From the NCBI GenBank assembly GCA_048213135.1, contig PS015061.1, positions 178,628 through 242,627 of the forward strand: 64,000 bases of DNA. Reading direction: 5' to 3'. This document shows positions 5,099 to 64,000 of the stretch, piece after piece (position 1 is the stretch's first letter; the number at the start of each line of letters is the position of its first letter). Below the pieces are notes generated by a model. It had not been told where the DNA came from and searched no databases. It saw nothing but the letters and a program-made list of their open reading frames with translations. The position numbers and the translations under genes are program-made. This DNA comes from Reclinomonas americana ATCC 50394. Taxonomy: Eukaryota.

Positions 5099-8000
5099 AT
5101 CTCTCTCCCTGTCTCTCCCGTCTCTCTCGCTGCCTCTGTGCTGAACTTCCCTCAGTTCTCAAGCTACCTTACTGCTGTTCCTTTCATTGTCCGTATTCTC
5201 CGCTGCCTCCTTCACTCTCTCCCCCTGCTCTCTCTCCCTCTCTCTCTCCCTCTCCCTCTCTCTCCCTCTCTCCCCTCTCTCTCCCTCCTCTTGCTCACCT
5301 TTCCCTCTTGACAGCGTCCGCCGCGCCTACCGCGCCGAGGGCGGCCCCGACTCATTCCTGGTGCGCTTCTGCAACTCGCTGCTCGGCTTCCACATGTCGG
5401 TGCGCCTCGAGCGCAGTTTGCGGCACTGCCACGACCTGCTGACGGCGTTCTCGCTGGGCGCCGGTCTCATCCTGTACGGTGCAGTTGCGTCGAAATGCAA
5501 TTTCTGCAGTTCGCTCCTCCGTCATCCCGCTGCGAGTCGCCTCATTGCATGTGTGCAGTACCTCACTGATTGGACGTATGGGCCGAACTTTGGCGAGGAC
5601 GGCTACGAGGTCATCAAGATCATTTCGCTCGTTCTCAACCTGGTCACGTGCTTCTTCATTTGTCGCTACTACAAGCTGCGCACGGACCGGCAAAAGTTTG
5701 TCGTCAAGTCGTCGACCTCCAGCATTCTCAAGTTTGAGTTCTGGCGCTCCTCGTACCCGATTCAAGTGAGTGTGCGACGCTCTGCTCCTCATCCATCTTC
5801 TTCGTTGATGCAAAGCTGCTGGTGTCGTATTTCTTGCTCTTCTCTTTCTTTATCGTCTCATCTTGTTGTTGATGTTGATGTCGTCCGTGTTCTTCTTACT
5901 CTCCGTTTCTCACGTTTCTCTTTCTCTTGAGGTCGATGCGTTGCTATTGCTGTTACTGCTGTTGTCCTTGTCCTACTTCTTCTCTTTGTCTTCTTCACGT
6001 CATTGATGTTGTCCTTCATCTTCTCCGTGTCTTCGATTGTCACTTTTTCTTCTTCTTCTTCTCCTTGCTGTTCTTATTGTGGTTGTTTGTTTACATCTTC
6101 TAGTTTTCTTCCTGTTGTTGCAGCTGTCATTATCCTGGATCTTCTTCTTCATCATCTCCTTTCTCACCCTCACCCTCCTCCTCCTCCCTCATCTTGTTGT
6201 GACTGAAGCTGTTCTCTCCCTTCTTGCCCTCCCTCTCCTATCTCTTCTCCTCCTCCTCTCCCCCCCCCCCCCCCCCTCCGTCGTGCCCCCGCTCACTGCT
6301 TGACCGCGACGCAGTTGTTGCTGGAAATCATCGCACACCTGGCGCAACCATTCCCGTTCCTATCGCGAGTGTGGTACGAGAATGACCAGCTGTCGATTTT
6401 CGTGTGCCTCCGACTGTACGTGATCTTGCGCTTCGTGCGCGACCACGCCGTCATCTTCCAGCGGCGCGAGCTGGTGCAGCAGGAGTTGGCTGAGTTGAGT
6501 TTTTGTGCAAGGAACTGCTTTCGACACTCGTCTCTGTTTTGGTTGTCGTCGCACCTCGCACTTTTTATGCCACCGTTGACTCGCCTTTCTTTCTCATTCA
6601 GCCTCTCATATTATCTCTGTGCGTTGCCATTGGCTGGACTCTCTTCTGTTATAATACGCATATGTCTGCTTTGTCAATCTGCCCTTCGCGTTCCTTCTCT
6701 CCTCTGTCTCTCTCTCTCCTTTTCGACACACATCGTGCTCTTCCTCATCGTATTCTCGCGCGCGCGCGCTCTCTCTCTCTCTCTCTCTGCATTGCTGTTG
6801 ACTCGCTTTCTCTCTTTCGTTCTCGACGTGTGTCTCTCTTGTCTCATGCTGCCTTCGTCCTCGTAATCCTGTCTCTTGTAATTTCAACACAGTTCCCTCT
6901 ATCTTCAATCTGGCTTTAGTATTCTCTCCGTGTGGCTGTCGCCTCATCTTTTTCTGTCATTCAGTTTTCTCAGTCTGTTTTATCTCGTTCTCTCTCTCTT
7001 CTTGTCTCGTCTCTCTCTCTCTGTCTCTCTCTTTCTCTCTTGTGTCGTCTCTCTCTCTCTCTCTTGCCTCGCCTCTCTCTCTCTCTTGTGTCGTCTCTCT
7101 CTCTCTCTCTCTTATGTCGTCTCTCTCTTGTGTCGTCTATCTCTCTCTTCTTGTCAGCACGTCTCTTTCTCGCTTCATATTCTGTTTTTTTGGCCTTACT
7201 CTTTTAATGTTTCCTCATTTTGTTGTTGACCCATCTCTCCCCTTCCCCCCGTTCCCCCCTTTCCACTTACCCCCTTTCCCCCCTTCTCCCTTCCCCCTTC
7301 ACCTTCTCCCCTTACCCTTCCCCCCCTTCCCCCTTGTTCCCGCCCTCCCGCAGACACAACATGTCCTACAAACTCGGCTGGCGCGCCGCCTTCAAAATGC
7401 TCTTCTACTACCGCACCACCACCATGTTTGTGATGGCCGCGGTGTTGACGATTCCCCTGCTCGCCTTTATGGTGTGGCAAGCGGAGCGCTTTGTCGAGGG
7501 TTCACTCTTCAACAACTACTTTAACTGCCTGTGGGTGAGTGAGTGAGTGAGTGGACGGCGTGATCTATATTTTCTTACTCGTAATTGCAGTTTGTGTACA
7601 TTACCATGGCAACGAGTTGCGTTCTCTTTGTCTGTGCGTGTGACCATTCTCTTTCGCGTCACCCACTCCACTCTACATCACAGTTGGCTACGGTGATTTC
7701 TACCCGGTGGGCGTGCAAGGCAAGCTGGTCGTAGTCAGCATCGGCATCTGGAGTGCGCTCATGCTCGTGCTGCTGGGTGCCTTGGTGACCAACAAGATCA
7801 AGCTGACGCGCCAGGAGATGTACGTCACTCAAGCCACAGACGCGTGATGCAGATGACAATCGACTCACTCTCACACACGCACAGTCTGGCCATGAAGGTA
7901 GCGTTCGAGGCACGTCGCAACCGCAATCGTGCGCACGCCGCTGCGCGAGTGATTCAGTATCCGTGGAGGTGAGTGTTGCGATTCCAGTTGCACAGTCGTG

Positions 8001-11679: not shown

Positions 11680-11762
11680 GCGCGTTGAGAAGAAGAGGAG
11701 AGAGCGAGCACAACAACAACTGTCACTCATTCATTTTGCCGCGCGCTCTCTGTGTGACGACC

Positions 11763-13002
11763 ATGTTGCGCTTTCCTGTGAGAGAGAGAGAGAGAGAGTG
11801 AGAGAGAGTGTGTGTGAGAGGGAGAGGAAGAGAGAGCGAGTGAGCAAGCGTGTGTGTGATCGTGTGTGTGTGCGTCTGCCTGTCTCCCACTCTCTCTCTC
11901 TCACACACACACACTCTCTCTCTCCTGTCTCTCTCTCTCTCTCTGTCTCTCTTTCTCACACTGTGTGTGCAGGGCAAATCGTCTGTTTGAGGCGGTGGAG
12001 GCGCGCGATTTCGACGAGACTGTGCGACTGGTGGAGAGTGGTGCTGAGGACATCAACGCACAGAATGCGCAGGGGAATACGGTGTTGCACTTGGCGGCAA
12101 TGTCGTTGCGTTGTTGTTATCAAGTATCTCTCTCCGATCCTCTCTCTCCTTAGCAGTGAGGGAAGCAGAAGGGGGAGGGAGGGAAGAGTTGGAGAGACTG
12201 CGAGAGATCCATTGTGTCTCGTGCTCTCTATCTATCGCAGTCTCTCGTCCTTCTTTCTGGCGGTGTCTCGGTCTGTCGGTCTTTATCTCTTGCAGTCTCG
12301 TCGTCACGATGCCTCTATCTCTCCTTGATCGATCACTGTGTCTGCGGTCTCTGTTTCTCTCACCTCTTTCTCTCGTCACTCTCTTGTCACCCTTTCTCTC
12401 TCTTCTCTCTGTTTCGCTCTCTCTATCGCTTATGTACTCTCTGTCTCACTCGCTCATTCTCCAGTCTTTCGCTGTTTTCCTTGCGTCTTTCTCTCTCTCT
12501 CTCTCTCTCAGTGCTCCTTTCCTCTTTTCCACCTCTCTGTCTCTTCGCCTGCTGTCGTTTCCTCCTCGGTTCACTGGCACTGTTCACGCTTTTTCGGGCT
12601 CGCAGTCTGTTGACTCTGCCTCTCCATCCCTTCTCTGTGTCCCTTCTCCTGCTTTCGGTCTCCTGTTCTCTCTCACCTGTTCCATCACTTCTCTCTCCTT
12701 TCCCTTCCTCACTCTCTCTCTCTCTCTCATCTCCCCCCTTCGCCTTCATAGTAAGGACGAGAAAATGTGCTGCTTCCTCGTGGAACACGATGCCGACATG
12801 AGCGTAGAGAATCGCGACGGCAAGTCACCGGTGGCGTGCGCACCAGCCCGTTTGCGTGGAATGATGAAGGGTGCGGCGAGGATGCGCGATGCTTGTGATG
12901 AACGTAGCCTGACTCTGTGTTTGTGTAGCCACCAAGGAGATCAAGGAGCTGTATCGGCGACTGGAGAAGCGCTTCCAGCAGAACTCGGAGAACGCCTCAT
13001 GA
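11763..13002 (+). CDS. Small ankyrin-repeat protein; exons 11763-11764, 11973-12104, 12752-12870, 12929-13002
   Basis: ANRLFEAVEARDFDETVRLVESGAEDINAQNAQGNTVLHLAA...CFLVEHDADMSVENRDGKSP matches the ankyrin consensus; start codon reconstructed as AT|G across intron 1. Confidence 0.85.
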
Positions 13003-18780: not shown

Positions 18781-18824
<44 letters not shown>

Positions 18825-23827: not shown

Positions 23828-26800
23828 CACACAGAGGAGGAAGTTGTTGCAGATGCAGGAGGTAAAGAGACGAACGACATGGATGACGATAGGAACGGAG
23901 GGACACGAGATAGAGAGGGACAAGTAGAAACAGGAGGCGAGTGACAAGGGCAGTGACGATAGGAACGGAGGGACACGAGATAGAGAGGGACAAGTAGAAA
24001 CAGGAGAATCAAAGAGGCGAGCGACGACGGCAGCGACGATAGGAACGGAGGGACACGAGATGGAGAGGGACAAGTAGAAACAGGAGAATCAAAGAGGCGA
24101 GCGACGACGGCAGCGACGATAGGAACGGAGGGACACGAGATGAAGAGGGACAAGTACACATAGGAGGAAGTTGCAGATGCAAAACTGAAGTAACGAGGAG
24201 AGCGACGAGGGCAGTGGCGAAAAGAAAGGAGGGACACGAGAGAGTTAGAAAGCAATCGTGCGAGACAATCTTCCTAAGCTTCGCCTCACTAAACTCTGCC
24301 TCGTCGTCGCAACCAATCACCTCTTACCCGCTTTCTTTCTCTCTTTCTCATGTCAAGCTGCACGTTGTGCACTCCTACACGCAACAATAGTCGCCAACTT
24401 CTTCATACTCCTGCATTATCGTCTACTTTCCCTCTTTCTTACTCTCCTGTCCATTTATCCTCCTTCTTCTGGCACCCTCTCGCTTTCCATTCTCCTGGCC
24501 TCTCTTCCTCACTTTCTTCATTTCCCTTTTCTGTACGCACCCTCTCGCTTCACTCTCTTCTGTGCCCCCACCGATTTCTACCTCCCTCCTTCACACCCAC
24601 ATGTCTCCCAACTCTTTCCTGCTATTCATCCTCCTCCTTTGCTCTTCTTCTCTTACCCCCTTCCCCTCTCTTCTCCTCCCCTTCCCCTCCCCTCTCTTCT
24701 CCCCTCTCCCCCTCCCCCTCCATTCCCTTCCTCTCCTTCCCCTTCCCCTTCTCCCCCTTCCCCTCTTCTCCCCCTTCCCGTTCCACTTACATGCTTGTCA
24801 ATGGTGAACACGCTCACTGGATAGTTGGAGGTCATGGACAGAAAGCGATACACATCGCTAAACGCCAACCGCACGTGCTCGTCACCCGGACGCACCGTGG
24901 CCCGCACGCACTCCACGCACGACAGGTAGACATCGACGGGCACCTCCCCCGCGGCCGCGCGACGCACATTGAGGGCCTTGAGTACGCCGGAGAACACCGC
25001 GCGACTCTGCTCCGGCAGACTCATGCCACTCCACAACAACTCGCCCTCCGCATCGGGCCGATCGTACAGGATCTCGTCAAACTTGTACGGCAGACCCATG
25101 TGCTCGTCTACCGCCGCCTTCCACTTGCCAACCACCTCGCGCACGGCCTCCTCCATGGCGTTGCCGGGCGGCGGCACGGTCGACAGTGGGATGCACGGGT
25201 AGCCGCGGTCGGTGTTGGGCACCACCCGCCCGTCGGCACGCACCACCAGCTCGAGCACGCCGAGGTACTCGGTGTCGGCATCGCATTGCACAATCGTCAC
25301 TCCGTTGGCGCGCTTGGCGTACTTGTGGTGCGTGTGGCTGGCCAGAATCACGTCGACGGCACCGTGCGGAAGCATGTTGGCCAGTCCGACGTCCTCCGGC
25401 GAGCCTCCGTGGTACACCACAATCACCACGTCGCAGTCGTGCGGGTGCGAGCGCATGCGACGAGCCGTGGCCTCGACCACCGCCGCCTGCTCTTGCAGGT
25501 TGCGCCTAGATTGGCAGTCAGTGGGCGGAAGAGGAGAAGGGAGCGAGAGAGAGAGAGAGGAGGGCGCGAGATGACAACGAACCGCAATGACTGCTCGTCG
25601 AAACCGACAAAGCGCAGACCGGCGCGCGACGAGTACGACAACTCAAGCGCATCGGGTCCCATCAACGCCGTGACGCCAACCCGCAACGCCCGCCCATCTG
25701 CACCACTCGGCATCTCCTTGACGATGAATGGGCGAATGGACACCGTTGGTTCCTCCGCCGCCGCCGCAGCTGCACTGGTCACACGCGGCTCGTCCACCCA
25801 GAATTCGTGATGCAGCTCGGCCCACGCGTCCGTCGGAACAATGTTGGCACACAGCAGCGTCACATCGAGCTTCAGATCGCGCGCCTTGCGCAGCATACGC
25901 AACAGCCCCGCCGTTCCTGCAATCCTATGAGCGAGAGCAGACGACGTAATCGGAAATTCTCCGTCACTCACCGGCGTCGAACTCGTGGTTGCCGAGCGAC
26001 AGCGCATCGTACGCCATCATGTGCGCGAACTCGAACTCAGGAGCACTGCAATGCACAGCGTCAGTACTCCACCAGCAAGCTTGACAAGGGCGACAACGCA
26101 ACAATCGCGTGACAGGCGACGGTCCCAGCACATCAAACAACCTGCATGCATCAATGAGAATCTCACCAAGAGAGAGAAAGAGAGAGACTAGGACACCACG
26201 CAACGAGCCACTGAAGAAGTCGCCAGCGTCAAGCAACATGGTCTGCAGTGAGAGACACATGTACACAGTGAGCAGAATGAGGAGACAACTCGAGCTCATT
26301 GCTCCTTCCTGCTCCTCCCCCTCGCTCTTCTTCTTCATCTTCTTCTTCTTCTTCTTCTTCTCATGAGAGACAGTGAGCAAGAGTGAGGAAACAACTCGAG
26401 CTCATAGCTCTTGCTCATGCTCCTCCTGCTCCTTCTTCTTCTTCTCAAGAGAGACAGTGAGCAAGAGTGAGGAGACAATCCTCCTCTTCTTCTTCTTCCT
26501 CTCATGCGAGACAGTGAACAAGAGTGAGGAAACAACTCGAGCTCATTGCTCCTTCCTGCCCCTCCTCCTCGTCCTCCTGCTCATGCGCCTCCTTCTCCTC
26601 CTCCTCGCTCTCTCTCTTCTTCTCTCTCTTCTTCTTCTTCTTCTACTTCTTCTCATGAGAGACAGTGAGCAGACAATTCGAGCACACTGCTCCTCCTCCT
26701 CCTCCTCCTTCTGCTCCTCCTGCTCCTTCTCCTCCTCCTCCTCCTCCTTCTGCTCCTCCTCCTCCTCACCGGCTCATCATGCTCCAGCTTCTGATCGCGC

Positions 26801-26983
26801 ACCGCTTGCACTGCAGCTGCCAATCGCGCAAACCCACCTTTCCTCTGCTCCACTTGCGTGTCAAACGCGCAACATCCCTCCACTGCACTGTGCACATCCG
26901 ACGTCCACATGACAGTCACATGACGATTCCCTCGCGCACCGTGCTGCAAAGACGCGCGTGCATGTGCGTGAGAGACAGAAGTG

Positions 26984-27019
<36 letters not shown>

Positions 27020-27183
27020 TGCGCAACAAACTGCTCAGAGGCAAAGGTCGCGCGCCACGCTTGCTCTGTCAGCATGCCACCCTGTCGCGGATCACTCAGT
27101 TGTCGCGAGGCCGACCACGCAAGTCCGAGTATGACAGACACAAGTGCGACAAGCACCATGGCCAGCACAGATGCCCATCGCAT
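23295..27183 (-). CDS. 5'-nucleotidase/apyrase-like metallophosphoesterase (UshA/CD73 family) with N-terminal signal or anchor; about 9 exons
   Basis: WTSDVHS, GGFARL, LLDAGDFFSGSLF, YDALSLGNHEFDAG, LLCANI, VDVILASHTH, YLGVLEL. Confidence 0.88.
23885..24240. repeat. Intronic minisatellite, 70-80 nt unit, 4 good copies plus 1 degenerate
   Basis: gacgataggaacggagggacacgagat..agagggacaagta starts at 23885, 23955, 24035, 24115. Confidence 0.9.
26262..26690. repeat. Intronic array of about 5 conserved 35-45 nt blocks separated by variable-length (CTT/CTC)n spacers
   Basis: gagacagtgagcaagagtgaggaaacaactcgagctcat-like blocks near 26262, 26366, 26451, 26508, 26659. Confidence 0.8.
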
Positions 27184-27663: not shown

Positions 27664-30600
27664 ATGAAGCGCGCGCCACACCTGCTGCTGCTCCTGCTTG
27701 CGGTGTTGGCGCTGCTGCTGGCAGTGGTCATTGTCGACGTACACAGTGTCACTTCCTCCACTGTGCGCGTCGAGTACGACTTCCCGGCCGAAGTGCAGTT
27801 CGACTCTGATGATGACGCAGTTGCAAATGAGGATTCTCCACACGCGATGATTGCCACGGCAATGGGAGGCGGACACAGTCCACTGGTTCCGTCATTGTGG
27901 GAGGAGGTAATGGCGGTGGAGGAGGAGCGAGTGCGGACGGCATTACGTCGTTCCACTTGTGATGCGCTCTTCTCCAACATTACCGTGTGCGCGCCCGCCG
28001 GCACCAAGGTCACCACTGTCACACCAACATGGTGCGCGCGCACTCTGTCTCTCTCTATGCGCGCGTGCGTGTCATGCCACGCTCATTGTGTCATGTAGGT
28101 GTCGGAATGGCAATCCATTTGCTGCCGCTCCGCAGCTGTTCTCTGATCGCGCCAACTTCCCCAATCCGCACGTGTTCTGTGGCGCGCAGACGAGCAGGCA
28201 GCGGTGGCGTGCCAAGCTGGATGGGCAGGATGATCAGTGGTGGCGGTGGACGCATGAGCGGCCACTGGATCCGGAGGATGAGGCGTTGTTTGGTAAGCAG
28301 CAGGAGTGGCAGCCGGATGGGAGATCGGATCCGCCCAATGATAAACGACTGTGGGAGCCGTGTGAGAGTGTCACGGGCACGGATTCGTGCGAGGTGACAG
28401 TGAATGGGAGTGTGCGGAGGGTGGCGGGCTTTGGATTTCTCGATGGCACCTACGCGCTGGTCGACATGAACACGGAGCAGGTTGGTCTCTCTCTCTGTCA
28501 CTCTCTGTATGTGTGTTCACTCAGGTGCCTTGCTGCCTCTCCCCTCTCCTTCATTGTGTGTTCATTCGCCCGTCTTGCAAGGAGCAGTTCATCGTCCGTG
28601 CATATATATCTCTCCCTCTCGATCCCCTTCCTCCCTCTCCCTTTCTTGCCCTTCCTCCCTGTCCCTTTTTCTCCCTCTTTCCCCTTGATGTTCATTCAGC
28701 CGTCTTGCTTTCGCTCACGTGGGACTGGTCATCGCCCATGCCTTACTCTGTCTCTTTCTCGCTTGCCCTTGCTCCCTCCCCTCTACCTCTCTTGCCCTCC
28801 CTCCCTTCCCTTCCTCCCCCCTTCCCCTTCATTTCCTCATTCTCCCTTTGCCATCTCCGTCCCCTTTCTACCTCCATTCACCCTTTGATTGTCGTCGCAG
28901 TTCATCGCCCGCGGCCCATCACAAGTAGGCCCACTGTTCTACTTTGGTGCCGGCACCGTGATCCCCTCCGGCCCCCTGCCGCACGGTCAAACCGAGCCCA
29001 CCAAGTACGGCTACTTGGTCGGCGGCGGTCCGCAGTGGCTCGGCATTGCGGCAATTGTGCCGGATCCCAACAATCCACCCACATTCCTCAACTTTGAGGG
29101 AGTGTCCTCACGTTGCGTCCTCCTCCTCCTCCTCCCCGTCATTCTCGCGCCGCACACTCTCACTCTCACTCTCCCGCAGATCACTGGACGGACGACACCG
29201 AGGTCGTGGGCTCTGTGACGCGCTCCAAGCTGCAAGTGGACACATTCATCACGGGCACGCTGATTCGCCAAAACTCGCTGCGCGATCCGTCGCGGTACAC
29301 GTTGCAGTGGAGTCGCTTCCCCTACTGGAACAAGGACACCATGAACAGTGACGCAGAGCTGTTTTGGTACAACTGGAAGTTGCTGTGGCCTCCTGCAAAA
29401 CACTTGTTCCAAAAATCGCCGCTCAATCCCTCTCTCCCTTCCCTCCCCTCCACAAAGGCTGCACTTCGAGGTGCCCCTGGAGGGCACACCGACCATCCGC
29501 ATGGCCTCGCAGCACGTCAACATCACCTCGTACTCGTTCTTCCAGGTGGCAGCCGACTACAAGCAAGACATGGTTGTGCTGTACGACACGCACCGACTGT
29601 ACCTGTTTGGCTTTTACAACGGTGTGTGCTCCTCACTTTTCCACATGAAGTCCTCCCTCCGTCACCTCAATTATCTCGTGTCGCGCAGGCACCGCCGGCG
29701 AGTCGCTGCCGGTCAACGTCGCCAGCAACAGCACGGCGCTCTTTTACGAGGCACCATCCGACGCTGTCATCCTCTCCGTGTCTGTATTTTCCGAGCGCGC
29801 TCCACGTATCGATCCGCAAGTGTGGGACCACAGCGGACTGTGTCCGAAAAAGATCTTCATATCGCCCAGTGAGATCATGTGGGCGGCCATTGCGCTGGAG
29901 AGGCACAGCGCAGGCATTGTGCTGTGGGAGCTGCAGTTTGTGTCGCTGCCAGAGTTTGCCGAGCTGGATGATGTCTACCCGGAGGACCCCAGAGTCATTC
30001 TCGATCCAGCCGGAAGGTTGCGAAGCATGTGGCCTTTGCGTGTGAGGCCATCGCAGTCATTGATCTCACTCTTCACTGGCAGGTCCAAGCATCGCTGTCC
30101 GTCGCTGATGCAGTTTTGGGACACGGTGACTGGGCGGTGCGAGCAACGAGAGACATTCGTTGAGCCACTCGCAAACAAGGTACGCATATGCCCGCCTTTG
30201 CTTTGCAAACGTCTTCTAAAACCTTCACTTCGCCACCCAGCCATCCGACGTCCAAGTGCGCTACAAGGAGGCGCCATCACCATTCTCGGCCTACTTCAAC
30301 AAGCTGAATGTGTTGTCGCTAAACACCTCGTGCGACCCATTCATCACCATTCCCGTGGCCTACAACACGTGCATGGCGGCACTGAAGGACATCAAGCACG
30401 ACATTGAGATCGGCAAGGAGTGCCTCGGCCAGACGTTCTTCCCGAAGAGCTGGCTCTTTGGACCGTATGCTACGGAGACCATTCGCACAGTTGAGTGTTG
30501 CATAAAAATGACTGTGGTTCGGGGGGCGGCGTGTCTCGGGGGCTGACACCATTGTTGTGTGCGCAGATCACGTCACAATATCTGTTCAACTCGGTGTTTG

Positions 30601-43418: not shown

Positions 43419-43596
43419 TTATGCTGACACGGCGTGGACTGCGGGAGGGAAGAGAGGGTGTGAGCACGTGCTGGCGCACGAGGGTGAAGAGGAGGAGGAG
43501 TGAGACGCAACATTCGCCCACGAGCTTGACGAGCTCCGGAATGGCCTGGGTGTGGAGGTGGTAGTGAGCGACGAGGGAGGGGGAGGAGAAGGAGAG

Positions 43597-48789: not shown

Positions 48790-51700
48790 ATGTCAGAGAG
48801 CAGCGCGGATGATCATGCGGTGCGCCTGTTCATGCATGTGCATGCCGTACGTGTTCCGTTTCACTCATGCACACACAGAGCAATCCGCCACCACCTCCGC
48901 CTCCGCCACCGCCTATGCTCCCTCCACCTCCGCCTGCCTCACTCGCCAGGCGCGACACTGTAGAGGAAGAACCGAGGTTTGCCATGCACTTTTTGTCACC
49001 GGGAAAACTCCACTCTCTCTCTCTGACACACACACACACACACACAGGAGCACTGCTGGAGAGGCACAAACAGCAGCAGAGAGCGTCGTGTCTCCAGTCG
49101 CTGCACATCTGCATCACATCTCCTCCACTGCTGCTGCTGGGAGCGCCAGTGGAAGTGGAGGTGATGTGAGTGGAGATGATGACCGCGATACCTCTGTGGA
49201 GGCAGTGGTGGCCCCGGGTCTGCGTGTGCAGATGCGTGCCACTCGCCCGATGAGGTCTGTGTGTGTGTGTGGCGTCGTCGTCGACTGTCTGACATTTGCT
49301 GGTGCCTTGTCCGCGTACTCACTGGCGTGTGTGTGTGTGCTCAGTGTGACGGTCAGTCGCCGGGAGCAGGCGCGTCTTTTGCGTGGACTCGATGGTGACT
49401 CGTCGCCGTCGCCGGAGCCACCTGTGGTACCGCCGCCGGTTTGTGTGTCTCTCTCTGTGTGTGTGAGCCTGTTTGTCGTCGTCTGATCGGTATTGGCGTG
49501 ATTATTTTTTTGCAGTTCTTGGATGTGTCGGCGGTGGCGCCGCCAGCGGAGCAGCCGAGAAACGTCTCCATGCTGGACTCGGTTGGTTGTGCTGCTCTCT
49601 CTTGCTCTCTTTGTCTCCCTTCCCCTTTCCCTGCCCTTTCCCATTCCTTACGATTCCTTCCTCGCAGGCTTCACTTGCTTGGGCCGGCGCAGCTGCTGCA
49701 AGGTGACTATTGCATCTCTTGCCTCGCGCTTGCCCTCTTGCATTGACATTGTCGTTTACTGTGACGCACAGTGGAAGCGGCGCTCAATCGACCACGCACC
49801 AAGTCGTGATCTCCGACAAGGAGCGTGCGTACGCCGTCGCACAGGAGGTCATGCACGCGCTGACAGTGCATGCTACGGCCTCGACACATCGAGTTGCGTG
49901 CGAGCTTCTTTGCTGCCTGCACGAGCATGACGGATGATTGTGGTTGACGATTTTGATCCGTGTCGGCAGCCGCTCGAGTTCCACATGGCCGAGTCGGCAG
50001 AGTCGTCGGCGACCCTGGAACTCGTGACGGGGACGAAGAACGATGTGCACGTGCGCGAACTGGCGCTGGTGACCAGAATTCGTGCCACAGTGGAGAGTGG
50101 AAAGCAGTGCTGCAAGGCCATTTATGCGTACCGACCGGTGGGTCCGTCGTGCCCTTCCAACGCCGAGGTGCCGGTCGACGACGCGCAGCGCCAGGAATTT
50201 GAGGAGCGGCGATGCAAAGTGTTTGCGTACGCACTGCGGCCGCTGCAGGATGCCGCCGCGTGGCTGCGGCAGACGTGCGGCTTGGTGCAGGAGGCCATTG
50301 CTTTCGATGCCCAGCTGGATGCGAAACTCGTGGTGTCCGACATCTTCATGTCTGAGCTCACGCAGCTGCTGGACGCGGTCGTGCAACTGGAAGCGTATGT
50401 ATACTCGCGACCGTGTCTGCAGAATGACTTGTCGCTGTACAATCGGTACGCCGCATGATGTTTTCCTCTTGTGTGTGCGCATTTCTCTAATCCACATCGC
50501 CACAATAGGGCCCTCAACGTGAGGTCACGTAGTCACGATCACCACGATGACTCGTCGTCGGTTGTGAACCTGCAGTTGTTCCTGGCGCAGCCGGCGTGGC
50601 AGCCGCTGTTTGCTGCCATTGAGGAGTCGCATACGCGACACAGCCGAAATGTGCCGCGTCTGCTGACCGACGTGCTGGCCTGCTGCTGCACCACTGCCGA
50701 GCAGCAGTCGTACACCACTGTGGACCAGCGTTACGCTTGTGTGCGTGTGACTGCCTTGGTTCTTGCCATGCTGCTCAAGTTGCGCAAGCCGTCCGACAAG
50801 CCCGCCAAGCTGGCCGACCGCGACATGTGTGGCAGTGGTGCACTGGGCGACAGTTGCCTGCGGTTGATGCGAGTTGAGTATCGTGTTGACGTTGATGGCG
50901 TTTGATGCCCCACCGATCTCATTGTGCGCATACAAAACAGGAGCTTCCGATTGTGCCCGTGTACGCCGATGTGGTGCTGTCGCTGCCGTCTGCTCGCATC
51001 CTGCCGCCTGCCTACGTGGACGAGTGGCAACTCATGCCTCCGGCCACCAGCGCCGGCGCCATGACACGCTTGCGAGACAGGTGCTAGTGCTCACTGTGGG
51101 TGCTTGCGAAATGAGTGTCCTCTTAAACTTCTTTCTATTTGCTCCAGGTATCTTTTGTCTGCGGAAAAAGTGCGAAAGCTTCGCGACTTGGGCGACAGGT
51201 GGGCGCGCCAGCTCAGCGATCTGATGAGCGCGGTGCGGAAGAAGTCATGCGTCACTTTTCACATATCTCGCTGTCTCTCACTCTCTCGCTCAGTTGAAAG
51301 CCGCATCGCCGACGCCGGAGGTGCTCAAGTGGGCGTACGACCTACTGTGCGATGCCTTCCATCTCCTCCTCAGCACGCAATGTGTTCTGCGCGAGCATCT
51401 TGCCTGGCACTACACCTTCCCCAAAGTCATCGAGGATGGCGAAGAAGGCCGGTTGCGAGACCAGTACTATCTCGCCCTGTGTGGGTCAATGGATCGAGAC
51501 GAGCTGCTGATGCTCATCGAGTTGGTGGCCACAATCAAGGAGCTTGAAGGTGACTGCCGATGGCATCTCTTCTCTTGTGCGATAGCACTGCCTTAAAGAG
51601 ATCGAATATTGTGTTCTCCAGGTCACGTTTTGGCCAAGGAGTCCACTCTGGCACCGATCATTCGACGGCACGAGAACCACGTCGTCCAGCAGTTCGTGCA

Positions 51701-52414: not shown

Positions 52415-52450
<36 letters not shown>

Positions 52451-53040: not shown

Positions 53041-53084
<44 letters not shown>

Positions 53085-56000
53085 GTACAATTCACCTCAC
53101 TTCGTTTTCGCACAGGCCAACTTGGTGTGGGATTGGTTCAGCGGGAAACTGACTGACCAGGTGTTCTTGTGGCACAAGACGCACGCAGCGTGGTGCGTAT
53201 TTTTCAGTGCCGTGCACCTGCAATCTAACTAATACTCTTCTTGTGTCGGTGTGGTGTCGCCGCAGCATGATGCTCGATCAGTACTATTTGCATGAGGGCG
53301 TGCCGAAAAAGGAGCGCATTGCTCGTCTCAACTCCATGCTGCCGTCGCGCCAGCGTTTCCACGCACTCGTATCTGTGCGCTACATTCAGCTGTTGTCGCG
53401 CTCCATGGACATCCACGATCAAGTCACAAACAGCCTTGGCCGGCTGCTGCGCGAGAACATCCAATCGCTGCTGTTGTACTTGGAGTCGCTGAAGCTGACG
53501 AAGCTGCATGTGAGTCATTGATCGATCGCCGTCCAGCCACTTTGCTTCCCCCTCTCACCCTATCGCAGTATTTCACTTCGCGCTTCAACGTTCTGCGGCA
53601 AACACACGCCGCACTGCTGCGCATGTTCCCCAAGTTGGATCCGTGGGATGATTTGCTTGCCGAATGCAACGGAAGCACCTCGCTCGTGAGCTTTGACACG
53701 CGCATCGTTCAGCATGTTGCGTCTCGTTGACTGTTGCGCACTTTGAACTCTGTCACTCGTCTCACGTCGAAAACACGCAGGTGAATGCCGAGTTGGCGAA
53801 TGATCTGCTCCCGTGCTACTCGTACAACTCGGACACGCAGCGCTTCTTGCGACTCTCGAAGAACACCGACTACCATCGACCAAAGACACCGCCGATGCGT
53901 GCAATCTTTCACTTTGGTTCTGCGGTGTGTCTGTTGTCGACTGTGGGGACCGCGTGCGTGAAGAATGCTAATCGTGCTTGCCGAAATAGACCGTGCGAGC
54001 GGCGTACGACAAGCTGGCCGCGCTCAAATCCGGTTATTTTGGTGTGTACCACATGCAGGCACTGGCGCAGGTCGTCGGTCCCGCGTCGCTCGCCTCGGTG
54101 GTGAATTCGGTCACCGAATTTGTCGGCCGTGAGGTTCGCCTGCATTTCATCGCTTGTGTGCGCACCTCCTCCTCCTTACGCTCACCACTGTTTCGTGCAG
54201 TTTGGCGAGTCTCTCGAGTCGTTCCTGCGCGAGATCGATCCGGCGATCAGTATCCCCATTCGCCAACCAATAACTCAAATGCAGGCTGCCGGTGCGGAGA
54301 AACAGTCTTGATCCATCAATTCATTTGTATGCTGGTCACTGATGCGCATGTTGTGCAGTGTGCTTCGACCGCCTCCGTGTGATGCTCAAGGATTTGATCT
54401 CGTACGAGGCGCTTCGCGACGGCATTTTCCAGGTCCTCAAGGCCGGCGGCAACGGCTTGGCCTTTTTGCACTTGATGGACCAGGTTCTCGTGCAGCAGGA
54501 CCTCTCCGTCATGATGGTGGCCGCGCCCTTTGTGGGTATCTCCCCTGCCGACGCCCGTGTCGACTCCTTTGTGTTCCACGTTGCGTCCTGCGACTGCATT
54601 TGTCGCTGCCACTTGTTCCTCTGTGAATGGATATTCAATCGTGGCGCAGGACCTGCATGCTGGTCACGTGCACAACGCCATCAGCTTCTGGGAGCAAGAG
54701 GAGCAGGAGTTCTTCCAGCATGTGGATGAGCAACGAGCGGACCAAGTGCGGCGCACGCCCGAGGAAGTGCAGCAGCGAGCGACGGACTTGGGTCGGTTCG
54801 TGTTGGAGCGCGTCGGCCAATTGTGCCAGGAGCCCAATTGTTGCGTGGCGAGGGGCAAAAAGAAGCTGGGTGCGGCACCACACTGAACGTTCCGCGTCGC
54901 ACAGGGAGCACTTACATGCCACGAGGTGATGCGTCCGTCCTCGACGGAGCCCTGTGGCGACTTGCTCACGCTGTACGTGCGCGAGCACCGACGTGGGGCG
55001 GCGCGGAGACCGCCAAAGGCCACGTGGCAAACTCGTGCGAAGGCCGCCAGTTCCACCGCACATGGAGTGCATTGCTTTTCGTTGCGTCCATGCCACATCA
55101 CGCACCAGTGGATTCACCCACCGTCCTTATCGCCCGCTTTGTATATTGCAGGCATTTTGCATGAATGTGACGTTTGCCGACATTATTCGCCAGTCGACTG
55201 CGACGACACGCGCCACTGGTGCCGACGTTGGAGTCACTTTCCAGACCGTAGATCTGCAGCGGCCAGTCAACAGTGCGGGCGACGGACTTCTCTGGGCAGG
55301 GTGCGTATGCGTTATCGTCTTCTTTTTCGTTCATCACTCGATCACGTCCTCACTCTGTCGCTACGATTATGCAGATGCTTCTTGGCAATGGCGTTTGAGC
55401 AGCAGCACGTGTGGCACGCGACCGATCACTCGCGCATTCTTCTGCAGCTTCACGAGATGCAGCGCAGCATGCACCCGCCCATGCCTACCCTCGATGTTGC
55501 TGGCTGGACCGAGTTCACAATGAACGCGCGCTGGGCTCTGGCGCTGTGCTCGCGGATCGAGGGCGCCTTTGGTGCGCTGCAGTACATGCCCACCGCACGC
55601 TCACTGCCTGCGCTGCCGATACCGCAGGAGCGCCCTCGTGTCCGACTAATTCACGGTTGCGTCACTGGCATGCACGATTGCGATTCCTCCGTTTGTTCTT
55701 CTGATTGCCTCGCCGCAACAGTGGTGAACGACGCGAGCGCTGCCGCTGCGGAAGGGGAGTCCTCGACGGCGACGACGGAGGGTGAGGACGGAGCCACCGC
55801 TGCCGCTGATGCACCAGCGCCACCCATGCGTACGCAGTCGACCTATCAACCCGCACTCGAACGCATGCACAACGAGTCACAAGTGTGGGCTCCGGGCATG
55901 TTCTCCTCGTATCAGTTGGTGTGGGACGACTTGAATGTGCCTGGGCGCATGTGGAACCCGGAGCATGCCGCTGCACTGTCGGTAAGCCGTCGCGGTTGGG

Positions 56001-57135: not shown

Positions 57136-60100
57136 ATGGCACGCCCGCGCCCTTTGGCCGGACCCTTCCACGAGTACAATGATTTCATCGAGGCCATGGA
57201 CCACTACACACCGGCCTCCAGTACCGCCTCCATCACCTCCATCGACTTCCCCATGGGCCTGAGCGCCTTGTCGGTGCGCATGCGTCTGCAGGAGGCACTC
57301 CAGCGGGGTGGCGCGTGCCCCACACCCAGCTCCATGTCGGCTGCCTCACTCGATCCCATGTCGACTCATGGCAGCCTGCAAGGCGACGAGGATCTGGCTG
57401 CGCCACTGCCGCCACCGACAATGCCCAACAGCCCACCGCCTCCACCGCCCTCCCCGCGACTTCGTTGCGCGGAGGCGTCGGCCGCCGGCACTGTGCCCTT
57501 TGGTGGCAGTGACCCGGCGCTGTCGGCCCGCGTGCACTCTGCTCGCGTCTCCTCGTCGTCGCTGTTCTCGGCCATGGCCGCGGCCACTGCTGTGGTGGAG
57601 ACGGCGACTCCGCGCCTTGCAAGCATGCCGCCGCCACCACCGCCTTCGGCACGAGACTTGACCGAGTCGCCGATTTATGCGTCGCCGCCTGAGCTGCTTA
57701 AGAGGCGAGTGCGCGCTGGGTGGCAGCAGGTTACTTGTGTTGTTTGTTGCTCACTTTGCGCTGTGACACAGACATCGTCGAGTCAGCGGCATGCATGATT
57801 CGATGACCGACGACCCGTTCGACCACTCGCCGCCACCTCCCGGCGGCCTGCTGTCGGCGCGACGATTTGATGTGGCCTCACCGCCGCGTCCGGTCCCGAC
57901 GCGCTCCGTTCCTCTGTCGCAGGCTCCCCTGTCGGCACGCCGGTCAACAGAGACCGCTATCGTTCCCACTCCGCGCGACAAGTTGCGTTCCTGATCATGG
58001 CCCTTGTGTCACAGGAAAAAAACTGACATTTCCCCCGTGCGCATGACACAGCGTGCTGAATGACATTGCCGACGACCCAGCGTCGCTGCTCTCCGACGTG
58101 AACCTGCAGTTTGCGGATCAGGATGTGCTGCGCTTTGCAAAGTTTAGCGAAAAGATCAAGCGATCATTACGCGTGCGCCGCGTCTCTCCGTGGCCTTCCT
58201 CCGACCCCGAATCGTGCTCGTCAGCGGCCTCGTCGGCCCGACTCGGTGTCGGCTGCACACAGCCAACCTCAGGTCGTGTCACACCGGCGGCCATGACTTC
58301 GGTCGCGCAACTGGCCACGACGGTCGGCAACATGCCACCGCCGCCCCCACGCTGCGCGAGCATGCCTGGTGCTGCCATGGGTGCAACTGCGCATGCACGT
58401 GGGTGGCGATCGCACAGCCCGGCATTGTCGATTGACGGCACCAACACGTCGGCCGACATTGTGTCGGCCACGGCGTTTGAGGACACGGACCGCGACACGA
58501 TCACGCCCGTGCATTTGCGCCACGCGGAAGCAGTAGCTCCGGCCACCGCTGGGGTGACCGGCGGTCATGCCCACAACCATCGCCACCACAGTCGCCATCA
58601 CAGCGACGACGTCGACGATGACGACGACGATGACGGAGACTGGTGCATCGACGAGGTGGATGGCGAGGTCCACGAGACGATCGGCGGCGAAGCCAAGTCG
58701 CTGGACACGGGCGAGCACACTGACGAGGCCGAGTCGACCAGCGACGTCGGTTCCATGTCGTCTGCATTTAGTGTGGCTCTCCGCCGACGATTCAGCCAGG
58801 ACCAGGAGAACATGCCGCCGCCCCCACTGCCACTCAAGGCCGCCACATCGTGCTCCGCCACTGCCCCGGGTTGCGCCACTCGCCATCCGCTGGTGCCGCG
58901 ACTGGCGCTGGCCTCGCTGCAGTCGCTGGCGGCCCCCGTGTGTGCACCAGCTGCTGCGTCCTCGGAGCCGGCCATGTGGCATCCACCGCGTCACGTGGTG
59001 CGAGCCAGCGGCAGCTCCCGTTCGTCGATCGACAGCGCTGGTAGCAGTGTCCGCCCACCGCCAGTGCCAGGTCCACGCCTCTCGGCGGCCAGCGGCGATT
59101 CGCTGCCGACACCGCGCTCGGCCGCTGGTGGACCGTTTGTGGCTCCACGCCCGCCATCCAGCCGCCTCAGTGCCGGCTCGTCATCGTCGGGCCACAGTGC
59201 GTTGCCGACTCCGCGCCTCTCCCTCAATCTGCTCTCGGCCGCCTCCAATGGCACCACTCCGCGCCTGTCGTTCGGCACATTTTCGTCAGTGTCGTCTTCG
59301 GCCTCTTCATCGACCGCCATGACACCACGCTCAGTGATTACGGGCGGACTCACGCCGCGAAGCGGAGGCGCTGCCGGCAAAGTGGTGAGCATGTCATTGT
59401 GATACTCTTCTTCTGCACTTCACGCTCACGTTGCACACTGTGGTTCAGATTGCTCCACCGCCACCGAGCCCCTTGCCCACCATTCCACAGTCCGACAGCA
59501 CGGCGCCAAGCAGCAGCACATTCACTCACACCAACAGTGGTGTTGCCCTTGACGCGCCTGCATTGCCGACTGCAGAGCCAACACCCACTGTGGACGTGCC
59601 AACACTGGCGACCGTGGTGACCTCGGCGCGACCGGACAACTCGGCGGCCTCGAAACTGCAGCGCATGGAGTGGATTCTGCAGCGCGATCGCCGTCAGAGC
59701 TGGCAGGCACTGTTGGCCTCCAAGGAGCGCGAGAAGGCCTTTTCGTCCACGGCCGCCGGTCGCCGCGTGCTGCAGCAAATTGGTGGCTCCTCACCCAACA
59801 AGCGCACGCCACGCGACACGGCCGCGGCCTTGACAGCCACCCTCGAGGCGCAGGCGCTGGACCAGGCCAAGACACATGCGTACCTTCGCAGCCTGGAGGT
59901 GCCGCAGCCGTCCGCGCCTCCAATGCCCACCAATAGGTTCCCCAACCTGACGGTGCGCGTCGGCAGTGGCGGTCCGCACGATTTCTTGGTGCAGGCACGC
60001 AGTGCGAGACAGGAGGAGCTGGCTCTCGAGCAGCAACGCCTCCTTACACCACGCGGTGCCAGCGAGGAGTTCATCCCGGAAGGTCGCAGCGGACACTGCT

Positions 60101-61893
60101 TGGCGTCGTTTGGCGAGCACGCCGTTCTCGCTTTCGGAGGCTGGGCAGGATACGGGCACCTCATGAACGACGCATTCTTCATCGACCCAGGTGTGTGTGT
60201 GTGTGCTACTAGCCAGTTTTTGTTGTGGCTGAATGAGCAAGGCGAACTCATGTGCATCCTGCTCAATAGTCTCGGGTCGATGCCGCCAGGCACACATCGT
60301 TGGCGATATTCCACCGCCTCGTGCGCACGCTTCGCTGGTATCTCTCCGTGACGCCACCAACACAGGTTGGTGCGCATTCCTGTGGGGCGGCCTTGGCGCC
60401 GACGATCGTATGAGTGACTCGTACATTTTCTACATCGGTGCGTTGCAAGTGCGGTCATCATTGTGCTTACGGGGGGGGCGTGTACTCACAATGTCGCGAT
60501 CAGATCTGGAGAACTTTGTGCTGGAGAGTCGTCAGGTGACCTTCCGAGGTGAGAAACCAACGCCGCGCAGCGGACACTCGGCCACACAAATCTCCGACGA
60601 TGAGGTGCTGCTGTTTGGTGGATTTGATGGCGACTACCGACAGGATGGATACATCTTTGACTTGGGTTGCGTTCGCTGCACTGCTCACTGTGTCACTATT
60701 ATGCAAGAAGCTAACAGAGCACTGCAGTCGCCCGACGGTGCAAGCGCTTGACGTGGGCTCGCGGTGTCATGCCGTGCCACCGCTCCGGTCACGTGGCGGT
60801 CATGATCGACGAGACCCGCATGCTGGTGTGGGGCGGTTGGAACACCGATAAGGACGTCGACCGCCACGCATACATTCTCGACACCAGTTGCGTTTGCAAT
60901 GCGCAGTGATGTGCAATGAGTGGCGGTGATGCTCATACGCCGACGAGCGCGCAGATTCGTGGTTGTGGAGCAAGCAGCGAATTGTGGGCGACGCCCCGCA
61001 AGAGTCTGTGTTCGAGGCCGCCGCCACGATGGTTGCCAGCAACAAGCTGTTGCTGTTTGGAGGTCGCAATCGCGACAACAAGTATCCGCGGAATACCTAC
61101 GTTATTGATACCAGTTGCGTGCGCATCATGGCCACTCGGCTTTCCCGTCGTGTTCGTGCGTGCTGACGTGGTGTGTGTCGGTCGCCAGTCACCATGGAGG
61201 GTATTCTGCTGGTGCTGGACTCGGAGGAGGCACCAGGTCCGCGCCAAGCCAGCAGTCTCGTCCCCGTCGGCCGCAATCGCGCGCTCTTGTTTGGCGGCTA
61301 CCGCCGCACTCGCATGGCCGACGTGTATGTCTTTGATTTGAAGAAGGGTTTGTCAGCTCCTACCCCCCCCCCCCCCCCCATGTGTGCAGTCGACGACACT
61401 CATTCGTGGCCTGTTGCTGTAGATTTGTCACTGCGCACACTTGATGCCGGTGCTGTGGCCAGCAGCGGCATGGTCGAAGCGTTGCAGTGGAGCGCGCCAC
61501 CCAAATCGAAGCAGTTGCGTGGCATGGAATGCTGCCACTCTCTTATCTCCAGAAACTCACGTGGTCGTTCGCGCAGCAGTAATGATGAAAACCGCGATCC
61601 GGTCACACTGAGCCCCGTCAACGGTGTGTCGGTTCAGCGCGTGAAAAAAGGTCGCTGGGAGAAGCGACATGAGGCCGAGGACTCCACACTTTCCGCACTT
61701 CTGGCCACACTCACTCCGTCGTCCGCCTCGTCGACCGCGGCAGCAGCCGCAGCCGCAGCCGAGCGCGCTCGACGCACATGGGATAGCACGGTACGCTTGT
61801 TATGTTGATCTGATATGTGTGAGGCCGTCACTCACCTGCCCTTTCTCGTTTCGCGTGCAGACTCCACAAGCACGCATGATGCTGCGACGGTGA
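57136..61893 (+). CDS. Kelch-repeat beta-propeller protein with very long Ser/Pro-rich N-terminus; about 11 exons
   Basis: Six blades: PEGRSGHC..LAFGG, PPPRAHAS..FLWGG, PTPRSGHS..LLFGG, PCHRSGHV..LVWGG, ESVFEAAA..LLFGG, PGPRQASS..LLFGG. Confidence 0.88.
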
Positions 61894-62252
61894 ATCAACT
61901 CCCGCACAGCACACCATAGTACAGCACGCAGCATAGCACACAGCACTCGGCGATTTTCAACAAACACATGTTACTTTTTTGTTTCATGCTTCTAAGATCG
62001 TCTTCTTGTTCAATGCGTGTTTCTACGTGTGGGTGTGGGGTCATCAAGCCCAAGGAGGGGCTTACTCGGTCGCCTCGGAGAGGGCGCTGGCGCTGGCACT
62101 CGGCACACCGCCGTCGCTCTTGCTGGCGTCCTGCAAATTATCAAAGCTGCTGGCGCGCCCACGCACTCGTTTCGGTGGTGTAAAGACCACGTCCTTGAGC
62201 GAGTCCACAGCCTGGAGGAGGGGAGATTTAGCGGCGATCGCTCATCGTTCAT

Positions 62253-64000
62253 CTATCCCGAGACTGGCGAAGAAGTTACCTTGTCGGCAATGCGACGGGC
62301 AGCCTGTCGCCACCCAGCACCATCGACGGCTGCCGCGCACAAGAGTGAGAAACAGGGTGCGAACTACGCAGCAAAACCAACAAACAAAAAAATGCACACC
62401 AGCTTGCTTCAGTCGCTTCCAGTTGTCTACCAACACGTCGAGCTTGAGCTTCTCCTCGATGAGGTTCTTCTTCTCTTTGAAGAACTGCTTCACCGGTCTG
62501 ATGGTCTTGGTGTCCTGCAGCTTTCTCATCTGTGCGCAGCGGAAATGATGAACACTTTGCTGCCATTCCGTTTTCTTGCACCCGGCGGCACGCAACATTT
62601 CTCTTCAACATCATGGCAATGCCACCGTCACGGCGCAACTCGTCTTGATAGATGCGATGCATGTGCGGACTGGTGATGATGAATGCCAAGTGAGTCAACA
62701 ACGCACACGATGTGATGATGACATCGCATTGACTGGCCACGAAACGTTTCCACGACGCGATTGAACACGAGATGGCAGAAGTGGGCGAACAGAGCCATGA
62801 AAAACACCGACCAACTGTTGGCCAACAGCGCAATCCCGTAGTAGCCGGAGAGTCCATACAGCGAGTCGGGATGGTTGAGATATCTACGACATAGGAGGAA
62901 GGAGGGTGGCATGTTTCTTGAGTTGACGCGACAAACGGCAAGTGACGGCATCGGAGGCGACTCGAACCGGTAGATTCCCGTGTAGATGAGCTTCGGTGGC
63001 AACTCGGTGACAAAAAAGTCGCCATAGTACCTGCGTGGTGCAGCATGCGCCTTTTAGATTCCCTCGAGCACCACCTTCCTCTCTCTTCTCTGTCTTCTCT
63101 CACACACACCATCCAAACAGGCCGAGTGATTTGAGTGCCGACACGGAGCCCCACATATTGACGCCACACAGCAGCTGCATCAAAAAAAGCGCCGCAGTGA
63201 GGGAGTGTACGCACGCGCGCGTCAAACAATGATGGCAGCACACACAGCGCACCAAGCCAGCCAGAGCCTTCCACATGTAGCGCTGGTCCAGAATGTTGGC
63301 CGGGAACTCGGCATACGCCCAGGCGGCCACCACGAAAGAGATGCCGTTCATCGTAAAGGCAATGTTGTAGAGCATCTTCCACGTCTCGAAGGCGTCGCGA
63401 TTCGTCTTGCCCTCGGCTATGAAGCGCTTTGTCCACATGCGCTCCTTGCCCTGGTAGTACAACAGGAAGCCGAGTCCCAGTCCCGAGAACATGCGCCAAA
63501 ACACAAAGTTGCTGTGCGTTGCGCCAGAGTGAGCGCACAGCAGCAAAAGACACATAGTGGTGTGCCAGACGCAACGATAGCAGGAACCACTGCTGCACGG
63601 CCAGGGCACACAGCAGGAGATTGTAGGCCACCACAAACACCAGGCACAGGTCAGAGACTCGGGAGAGCGACAGGTTGAAGAGGAAGATGGACTCGCGCGG
63701 CGACGAAAAGTAGCCGTGTTGCGGATGATAGAGGATGCGCTCACGCTCCGACTCGACCTGCTGGTTGTCGGCGCCCATGGAACCATAAATCTTGTCCATG
63801 TCTGCTCTCATGCACACAGATAAGTGCGTGCTCTCCCAGAGAGTGGGGAACAGAAGACGAGCAAGCAACGCAACGAGGCTCCTCGACCACCATGAGGAAC
63901 ACAAAGTGGCAAAAGTGCACAAAGACGCCGACGTAGAACGGTTCGTACGACAGCGCAAAGAGTGGAGCGCCGTACACAAAGGCGTAGCTGAGGGGCACCA
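62253..64000 (-). CDS. CHO2-like phosphatidylethanolamine N-methyltransferase, 5'-partial (continues beyond the window)
   Basis: FLMVVEEPHMDKIYG, NFVFWRMFSGLGLGFLLYYQGK..WTKRF, AFETWK..YN, SLGLFGWYYGDFF, LIYTGIYRYLNHP, VETPHMHRIY. Confidence 0.85.

Follow-up and report, generated by a model that had tools for sequence, protein, structure and literature searches.

A shifted 5' splice-site word associated with the last exon base in a 64-kb window of Reclinomonas americana

In a window of 64,000 nucleotides (nt) from Reclinomonas americana ATCC 50394 (assembly GCA_048213135.1, contig PS015061.1, positions 178,628 to 242,627 of the forward strand; all coordinates below are those of the window), predicted introns carry two classes of 5' splice site (donor), and the class is tied to the last base of the upstream exon. 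Alongside donors with a G at intron position +5 (unshifted) stands a class typified by the word GTTGCGT, in which the conserved G lies at +6 (shifted). Shifted donors sit almost solely after exons that do not end in G, far beyond chance: across 178 predicted introns, a G at exon position -1 precedes 3 of 33 shifted donors versus 74 of 100 unshifted donors (Fisher p = 2.7e-11), bearing out what had been proposed from inspection of the letters. We would put at about even the chance that the shifted sites form a second donor class, used by genuine GT-AG introns, in which one recognition word is read with a cut displaced by one base.

Introns were predicted by a dynamic-programming gene finder, self-trained on the window and combining a three-periodic Markov coding model, a GT/AG requirement, a length prior and an acceptor model confined to intron positions. 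Its donor score is a first-order model of intron positions +3 to +10 only and is thus blind to exon position -1. Of the 178 introns in the final run, 118 form a high-confidence subset, with coding log-odds of at least 5 on both flanks and flanking exons of at least 20 nt. The strict shifted class, used throughout unless stated, is GTTG[ACT]G[TC]; the broad shifted class of the earlier sequence-only reading is any +6G donor. H denotes an exon base other than G, and a slash marks the exon-intron boundary.

The association is sharpest for the exact words. A G precedes all 15 predicted GTGCGT donors and 3 of the 24 predicted GTTGCGT donors (p = 3e-8); that is, H/GTGCGT accounts for 0 of 15 and H/GTTGCGT for 21 of 24. 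In the high-confidence subset, exons ending in A are followed by 9 shifted, 0 unshifted and 4 other donors; those ending in C by 9, 5 and 2; those ending in T by 3, 8 and 7; and those ending in G by 3, 53 and 15. The shifted share thus descends from A (9/13) through C (9/16) and T (3/18) to G (3/71). The broad classes differ likewise (9 of 32 +6G donors after G versus 53 of 66 +5G donors, p = 1e-6), and the effect holds in each intron phase, with G-ending and other exons numbering 0 and 8 for shifted versus 23 and 4 for unshifted donors in phase 0, 2 and 6 versus 15 and 5 in phase 1, and 1 and 7 versus 15 and 4 in phase 2.

Counts made without the finder point the same way. GTTGCGT occurs 24 times on the plus strand and 11 times on the minus strand, with 12.6 expected under an order-3 Markov model; the 35 occurrences are preceded by A 9 times, C 13, T 9 and G 4, and 24 of them are predicted coding-strand donors. 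Over all occurrences, G precedes 4 of 35 GTTGCGT versus 30 of 96 GTGCGT words (p = 0.024). Among the strict shifted donors, -1G even falls below the exon background (3/33 versus 0.30, p = 0.005). False calls would dilute the association but cannot create it, since their -1 base would be G at the background rate of about 30%.

The two words are equivalent when aligned from the exon base of the unshifted one. As had been pointed out from the sequence, GTTGCGT differs from G/GTGCGT at one of seven letters (GTTGCGT, GGTGCGT). Read canonically, none of the 24 high-confidence shifted donors has G at +5, and 21 of them have none at -1 either; in the shifted frame, G+1 and G+6 occupy the places of -1G and +5G. 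The displacement extends into the exon, for the composition of shifted donors at -1 and -2 matches that of unshifted donors at -2 and -3 (chi-squared p = 0.76 and 0.47). The shifted word is also the tighter of the two: 24 of 33 shifted donors read exactly GTTGCGT, whereas unshifted donors are spread over GTGCGT, GTGAGT, GTGTGT and GT[AT]NGT. Donors with weak intron sides follow G in 6 of 8 cases for the class labelled 's' and 9 of 20 for that labelled 'O'. At +4, unshifted donors carry C 26, T 26, A 13 and G 1 times (n = 66), and 26 of 32 shifted donors have C at the equivalent position.

In its particulars, the sequence-only reading fared unevenly. It had counted about four G-preceded shifted donors, and their rarity stands, although a further G-preceded GTTGCGT lies at 55656. 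Exons ending in G were said to use unshifted donors nearly always; a majority do, at 53 of 71 in the high-confidence subset. The roughly ten unshifted donors reported after non-G exons number 13 (high-confidence) to 26 (all predicted), and some coordinates were off by one (5767 is 5766).

The strict shifted sites, which are spread over at least ten genes and both strands, are given below, followed by variants and reference donors. High-confidence rows rest on the finder's prediction unless another basis is named.

5484..5558, plus strand: gca/GTTGCGT; K+ channel gene; high flanking coding scores
6494..7353, plus strand: tga/GTTGAGT; long, CT-rich
7616..7683, plus strand: cga/GTTGCGT; K+ channel; junction rebuilds the T-I-G-Y-G-D selectivity filter
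12105..12751, plus strand: gtc/GTTGCGT; ankyrin-repeat gene
26142..26204, minus strand: ctc/GTTGCGT; 5'-nucleotidase-like gene
26046..26102, minus strand: att/GTTGCGT; predicted
29112..29179, plus strand: cac/GTTGCGT; ATP-binding cassette (ABC) transporter gene
30490..30566, plus strand: aca/GTTGAGT; predicted
37483..37545, plus strand: ctc/GTTGCGT; predicted
38054..38120, plus strand: tgg/GTTGCGT, exception after G; predicted
38581..38661, plus strand: cgc/GTTGCGT; predicted
49893..49969, plus strand: cga/GTTGCGT, 5' part of CYFIP; at the edge of the homology alignment; predicted
50873..50940, plus strand: cga/GTTGAGT, CYFIP; gapless within 8 residues either side against a hidden Markov model (HMM) of 45 homologues
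53716..53780, plus strand: cat/GTTGCGT, CYFIP; FragX_IP positions contiguous (500 then 503, with 2 residues between); HMM gapless
54580..54649, plus strand: cac/GTTGCGT, CYFIP; within a lineage-specific insertion; predicted
54840..54904, plus strand: att/GTTGCGT, CYFIP; HMM gapless in a poorly conserved region; low downstream coding score
55081..55151, plus strand: ttc/GTTGCGT, CYFIP; HMM gapless across WSALLF/AFC
55656..55721, plus strand: acg/GTTGCGT, exception after G; predicted
57982..58051, plus strand: caa/GTTGCGT; predicted
60666..60727, plus strand: tgg/GTTGCGT, exception after G; kelch repeat boundary
60887..60954, plus strand: cca/GTTGCGT; kelch repeat boundary; recovers the repeat (…LDTNSWLW…) and an exon of 159 nt
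61114..61188, plus strand: cca/GTTGCGT; kelch repeat boundary; 159-nt exon
61514..61576, plus strand: gca/GTTGCGT; predicted
63805..63874, minus strand: ctc/GTTGCGT; PEMT-like gene
63512..63575, minus strand: atc/GTTGCGT; predicted
62530..62596, minus strand: aat/GTTGCGT; predicted
43439..43511, minus strand: aat/GTTGCGT; low confidence
26944..27027, minus strand: variant ttt/GTTGCGC; low confidence
26817..26873, minus strand: variant gat/GTTGCGC; low confidence
30759..30820, plus strand: variant att/GTTGCGC; low confidence
31234..31306, plus strand: variant caa/GTTGCGC; low confidence
32190..32248, plus strand: variant acc/GTTGAGC; low confidence
11765..11972, plus strand: variant cat/GTTGCGC; low confidence; 2-nt first exon
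53510..53568, plus strand: cat/GTGAGT, CYFIP, reference case of an unshifted donor after non-G; Pfam and HMM alignment
60438..60503, plus strand: unshifted tcg/GTGCGT; paralogous kelch-repeat position
35000..35087, plus strand: gag/GTTTCGT, +6G after G; a different word, bulge-like
40048..40114, minus strand: cag/GTTTCGT, +6G after G; a different word from GTTGCGT

Five predicted donors read GTTGCGC, four of them with T before the word; these calls are less certain because the same 7-mer is common inside exons. A further donor at 12850 (plus strand), ccc/GTTTGCGT, resembles the GCGT anchor moved by two bases after a non-G exon, and is classed as unshifted only because its +5 base is G.

Protein homology, at the level that it can show, suggests that the shifted introns are real. 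In the K+ channel, the T-I-G-Y-G-D filter is rebuilt only by joining ACGA/GTTGCGT...CACAG/TTGGC (7616-7683); a one-base slide would yield T-S-G-Y-G-D, and the exon that follows this intron matches Pfam Ion_trans_2. In CYFIP, positions of the FragX_IP profile continue without loss across the introns at 53510, 53716 (shifted), 53925 and 54134, and the predicted protein aligns to positions 29-1226 of an HMM built from 45 full-length homologues, with a score of 715 bits. No gap falls within 8 residues either side of 13 junctions, comprising four shifted (50873, 53716, 54840 and 55081) and nine others; five further junctions, including the shifted 49893 and 54580, were left out of this validated set, as they lie at the alignment edge, in gapped stretches or in an insertion. 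The association is present among these 13 as well, with -1G at 0 of 4 shifted and 8 of 9 other donors (p = 0.007).

The kelch gene (60270-61347, plus strand) holds one repeat per exon, with exons of 168, 162, 159, 159 and 159 nt; it is the donors at 60887 and 61114 that restore the repeat and yield three consecutive exons of exactly 159 nt. Its five paralogous phase-1 introns lie at the same place in the repeat and carry the donors G/GTGCGT, G/GTTGCGT, A/GTTGCGT, A/GTTGCGT and G/GTTTGT. Donor class has thus changed at a fixed intron position, with four of the five following the rule. Within this one gene, paralogous introns that differ in donor class thus form a small natural series.

In their general properties, shifted introns resemble their unshifted counterparts. 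The median length is 68 nt in both, acceptors read [GA]CAG in both, and a YTRAY branch-like motif is found in 33% of shifted introns, 28% of unshifted introns and 11% of exon control windows. Read-through is impossible in 24 of the 33 shifted introns. All shifted sites start with GT and end with AG by construction of the finder; moreover, the second exon begins with G at 7 of the 24 high-confidence sites, where a one-base slide gives the same mRNA.

Two rival accounts carry little weight with us. The first is that the finder misplaced boundaries or over-called a favourite 7-mer, or that we are viewing a local accident of a few genes. GTTGCGT is indeed favoured by the self-trained donor model, some genes were fused and others plainly mispredicted by the finder (a 6-nt exon at 5816, a missed PEMT-like intron), and the introns are predicted from only 64 kb. 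Yet exon position -1 was never scored, so that false sites would dilute the effect; the model-free counts already differ; homology backs four CYFIP junctions and the channel filter one more; and the sites span many genes on both strands. We regard such an artefact as very improbable. The second, to which we give slightly less credence still, is historical: the shifted introns would stem from a single intron-generating element or process that leaves GTTGCGT behind and inserts preferentially after non-G bases. The near-invariant 7-mer and the narrow lengths (57-81 nt for most) would suit such an origin. However, all-versus-all blastn of the 118 high-confidence introns gave no shifted-to-shifted match (the nine non-self hits were all low-complexity), and nothing is conserved past +7 (positions +8 to +10), so the shifted introns are not copies of one element; unshifted introns share the length distribution, and both classes occupy paralogous kelch positions.

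Two known intron types were also set aside. U12-type (minor) introns need the donor [AG]TATCCTT, where the word here is GTTGCGT, and introner or transposon-derived introns are rejected by the lack of similarity among copies beyond the splice signals (blastn, 118 introns).

The displaced-cut reading can be put as follows. The recognition unit would be the seven-base word G-[G/T]-T-G-C-G-T, to which the guide RNA (U1, later probably U6) would bind in a single register. With G as its second letter, the cut would fall after the first G, giving G/GTGCGT and an exon ending in G; with T there, the sole GT starts at the first G, and the cut would fall one base upstream, giving H/GTTGCGT. Intron G+1 would then take the usual seat of exon G-1 opposite C9 of U1, with U+2 as a tolerated mismatch. 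Because that mismatch must be paid for by the rest of the word, the remainder would have to be nearly perfect, and the shifted class would be the more constrained, while exons ending in G could use many degenerate GTNNG donors. The geometry of this exchange of G+1 for G-1, which the sequence-only reading had proposed, fits the counts. We infer U1 as the reader, the pairing of its C9 with G+1 and a cut at GT in all cases; of these, the retention of the cut at GT, likewise part of the earlier proposal, is fixed at 7616 and would hold elsewhere by extension.

Pairing energies were computed with the standard U1 5' end, ACUUACCUG (string from PMC4856993), standing in for the organism's own U1, and they bring both support and difficulty. 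The shift is the best register at 10 of the 24 high-confidence shifted sites. Relative to the canonical register it costs -0.4 kcal/mol after A, +1.1 after C, +1.6 after U and +3.0 after G, an order identical to that of the shifted share by -1 base (A > C > T > G), and the minimum-energy ViennaRNA duplex for CA/GUUGCGU is in the shifted register, not the bulged one. The duplex check called for by the sequence-only reading favours a shift only where the exon ends in A.

Several points weigh against the displaced-cut reading. (i) The junctions are predictions; protein-level support reaches seven shifted ones (7616; 50873, 53716, 54840 and 55081; 60887 and 61114), among which only 7616 fixes the cut to the nucleotide, and the sample is one window. 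(ii) The high-confidence shifted donors average -1.2 kcal/mol in the shifted register, -1.0 with a +3 bulge and -0.4 in the canonical register, all with standard U1, for which unshifted donors average -5.9 canonically. (iii) No gain from the shift is computed where -1 is C or T, which is the case at 12 of the 24 sites. (iv) Shifted donors rank below 1,200 unused GT decoys from the same genes, with an area under the curve (AUC) of 0.38, versus 0.84 for unshifted donors; the idea that G+1 replaces -1G in pairing fits word geometry, counts and composition and is not supported as it stands by standard-U1 energies. (v) Simple pairing makes H/GUGCGU at least as good as H/GUUGCGU, yet the former is unused, so the demand for a G opposite C9 must have a source other than duplex energy. 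The weak pairing with standard U1 further means that compensation by U1 pairing would need a non-standard U1 or other factors.

The shifted word has G-C-G where standard U1 would want A-A-G or G-A-G. When 64 U1 5' ends were tried, one that carries G at position 5 set both classes apart from the decoys (AUC 0.74 and 0.85); it was fitted to the data and is no evidence that such a U1 exists, and the +4 preference could equally come from U6. Position +3 of unshifted donors is mostly G, and these donors do not show the A usually preferred at +3/+4, a hint that U1 position 5/6 may be unusual or that U6 may drive the preference. As a tentative and rather doubtful extension of the displaced-cut reading, the word G[G/U]UGCGU may be read through a re-tuned U1 5' end (e.g., G for pseudouridine at position 5) or by two U1 species, with the catalytic step picking the available GU. 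If true, the cut in about one-fifth of introns would lie one base further upstream than usual relative to the guide-RNA helix. U1 register and cleavage site would then be naturally uncoupled throughout a genome, which is so far known only from rare human sites.

The same observations may be taken differently, with a U1 whose 5' end has changed, or an additional U1 variant, matching GUUGCGU directly. Shifted donors would then be strong, self-sufficient sites in a canonical register of their own, and G/GTGNGT donors would be weaker and in need of -1G. The failure of standard U1 to explain the shifted donors speaks for such an RNA, as do the C/T-rich +4 of unshifted donors and the C at the matching shifted position, which run contrary to what pseudouridine at U1 position 5 would favour, and the G-at-5 trial end, as a fit only. 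A matched U+2 would, however, predict a looser shifted class than unshifted class, and the reverse is observed; the tightness of the word thus argues against a U1 with A opposite U+2. The +4 preference may stem from U6 instead, an Rfam scan of the window returned no family at gathering score and no U1 gene within it, and few eukaryotic RNA sequences are as conserved as the U1 5' end. We consider a directly matching U1 unlikely, if still deserving of attention.

A third possibility, which we judge clearly improbable, is that U1 and U6 bind these donors in the canonical register while one additional U, at +3 or +2, is bulged out. Exons would then be without -1G only through the ordinary "seesaw", by which such exons need a strong intron side. 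Bulge registers at +2/+3 are documented for human 5' splice sites, comprising a few dozen sites (PMC4856993; Roca 2012, Tan 2016), and in those sites, as in ours, a single extra nucleotide separates the GU from the G-U anchor downstream. Where -1 is C or T, the energy computed for the bulge also lies near that of the shift, and the two G/GTTTCGT donors (35000 and 40114) resemble bulged sites that retain -1G. Because a bulge is pure cost, however, H/GTGCGT should beat H/GTTGCGT under this model, and the counts are 0 versus 21. Bulging predicts a preference for the unbulged form and no dependence on -1, and neither fits our counts; nor does it give a reason for -1G to fall below the exon background. 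Where -1 is A the shift is the more stable (-3.0 versus -1.3 kcal/mol), and the +3 bulge is never the best register in the strict shifted class. For the GTTTCGT donors themselves, a bulged canonical register fits better than a shift.

In humans, the +1-shifted class is rare, at a few dozen sites. Shifted and bulged U1 registers are established there for rare sites (PMC4856993, PMC9311317), and of 201,541 human 5' splice sites, 1.5% use a validated non-canonical register of any kind (PMC4856993). The +1 shifted register of Roca & Krainer 2009, as relayed in these two sources, matches the arrangement proposed here: the GU is kept at the cut, the pairs move by one and G+1 faces C9, which in our case would follow from the word, and both settings lack the usual -1G and +5G. 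They differ in that the human shift is rare, whereas here it would take in about 20% of predicted introns (33/178) with the near-invariant word GTTGCGT, and in that human shifted sites carry A-A-G (for example ACA/GUCAAGUAU, from a table in PMC4856993) whereas those in the window carry G-C-G, which pairs badly with standard U1.

That -1G and +5G compensate for one another in 5' splice sites has long been known (Burge & Karlin 1997; Carmel 2004; Wong 2018; summarized in PMC8283771). There, as here, intron sides are degenerate after G and strong without an exon-end G, and the greater constraint on sites lacking -1G is present in the window, where most shifted donors are exactly GTTGCGT. The known seesaw, however, only strengthens positions +3 to +6, whereas here the register of the intron word changes, with the conserved G at +6 rather than +5; the absence of both -1G and +5G at 21 of 24 donors is a combination that should be rare under the known seesaw. 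Full-text literature searches for GTTGCGT as a consensus donor turned up nothing but primers and unrelated sequences; they covered running text, and a genome paper may already show the word in a splice logo in a figure or supplement.

With shifted and bulged registers known as rare human exceptions, a fixed shifted word in about one-fifth of introns would be a departure. Should the last exon base govern the use of such a word across a genome, that genome would offer a natural setting in which to study how cleavage is positioned apart from the binding of U1, and could show why a G opposite C9 of U1 matters more than duplex energy predicts. In practical terms, gene finders with a single donor matrix will misplace such junctions, as our first finder passes did at 60887 and 61114.

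The window itself is eukaryotic, intron-dense and about 57% GC, with two N gaps. Translations and Pfam matches identify a thymidine-phosphorylase-like gene, the K+ channel with its GYGD filter, an ankyrin-repeat gene, a 5'-nucleotidase-like gene, an ABC transporter, CYFIP (FragX_IP), the kelch-repeat gene and a PEMT-like gene. Too few Pfam matches were obtained from the K+ channel and PEMT exons to check junctions there, and motif expectation-maximization on first-pass donors was swamped by codon periodicity and dropped. Besides the 6-nt exon at 5816, the finder's faults include the merging of neighbouring genes and one missed PEMT-like intron: the predicted exon at 62808-63029 (minus strand) holds about 25 residues that break the PEMT motif (…GIYRF / …LNHPDS…), where an intron was probably missed. 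The 5'-nucleotidase-like gene was split in two at 25896-25964 (minus strand), and an unused GTTGCGT at 25903 (minus strand), with T before it, lies exactly between the two pieces and may be the missing donor.

For CYFIP, a search of 1.84 billion cluster representatives with a conserved exon (51993-52400, plus strand) found best relatives that are 33-39% identical and returned no protein of the source organism, which suggests that the lineage is poorly represented in public protein sets. The first CYFIP exon had no match at E <= 0.001 in a homologue search for longer proteins, and a metagenome scan for CYFIP relatives gave 48 pattern matches with none confirmed. The Protein Atlas yielded bacterial rows alone, all below threshold, and thus no clue to taxonomy. 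Finally, introns of 0.5-1.3 kb (5766-6314, 6494-7353, 8114-9043 and 2380-3641, all plus strand) stand beside those of 57-90 nt; nearly all of their length is CT-rich low-complexity and microsatellite sequence, with a run of about 18 C near 6260.

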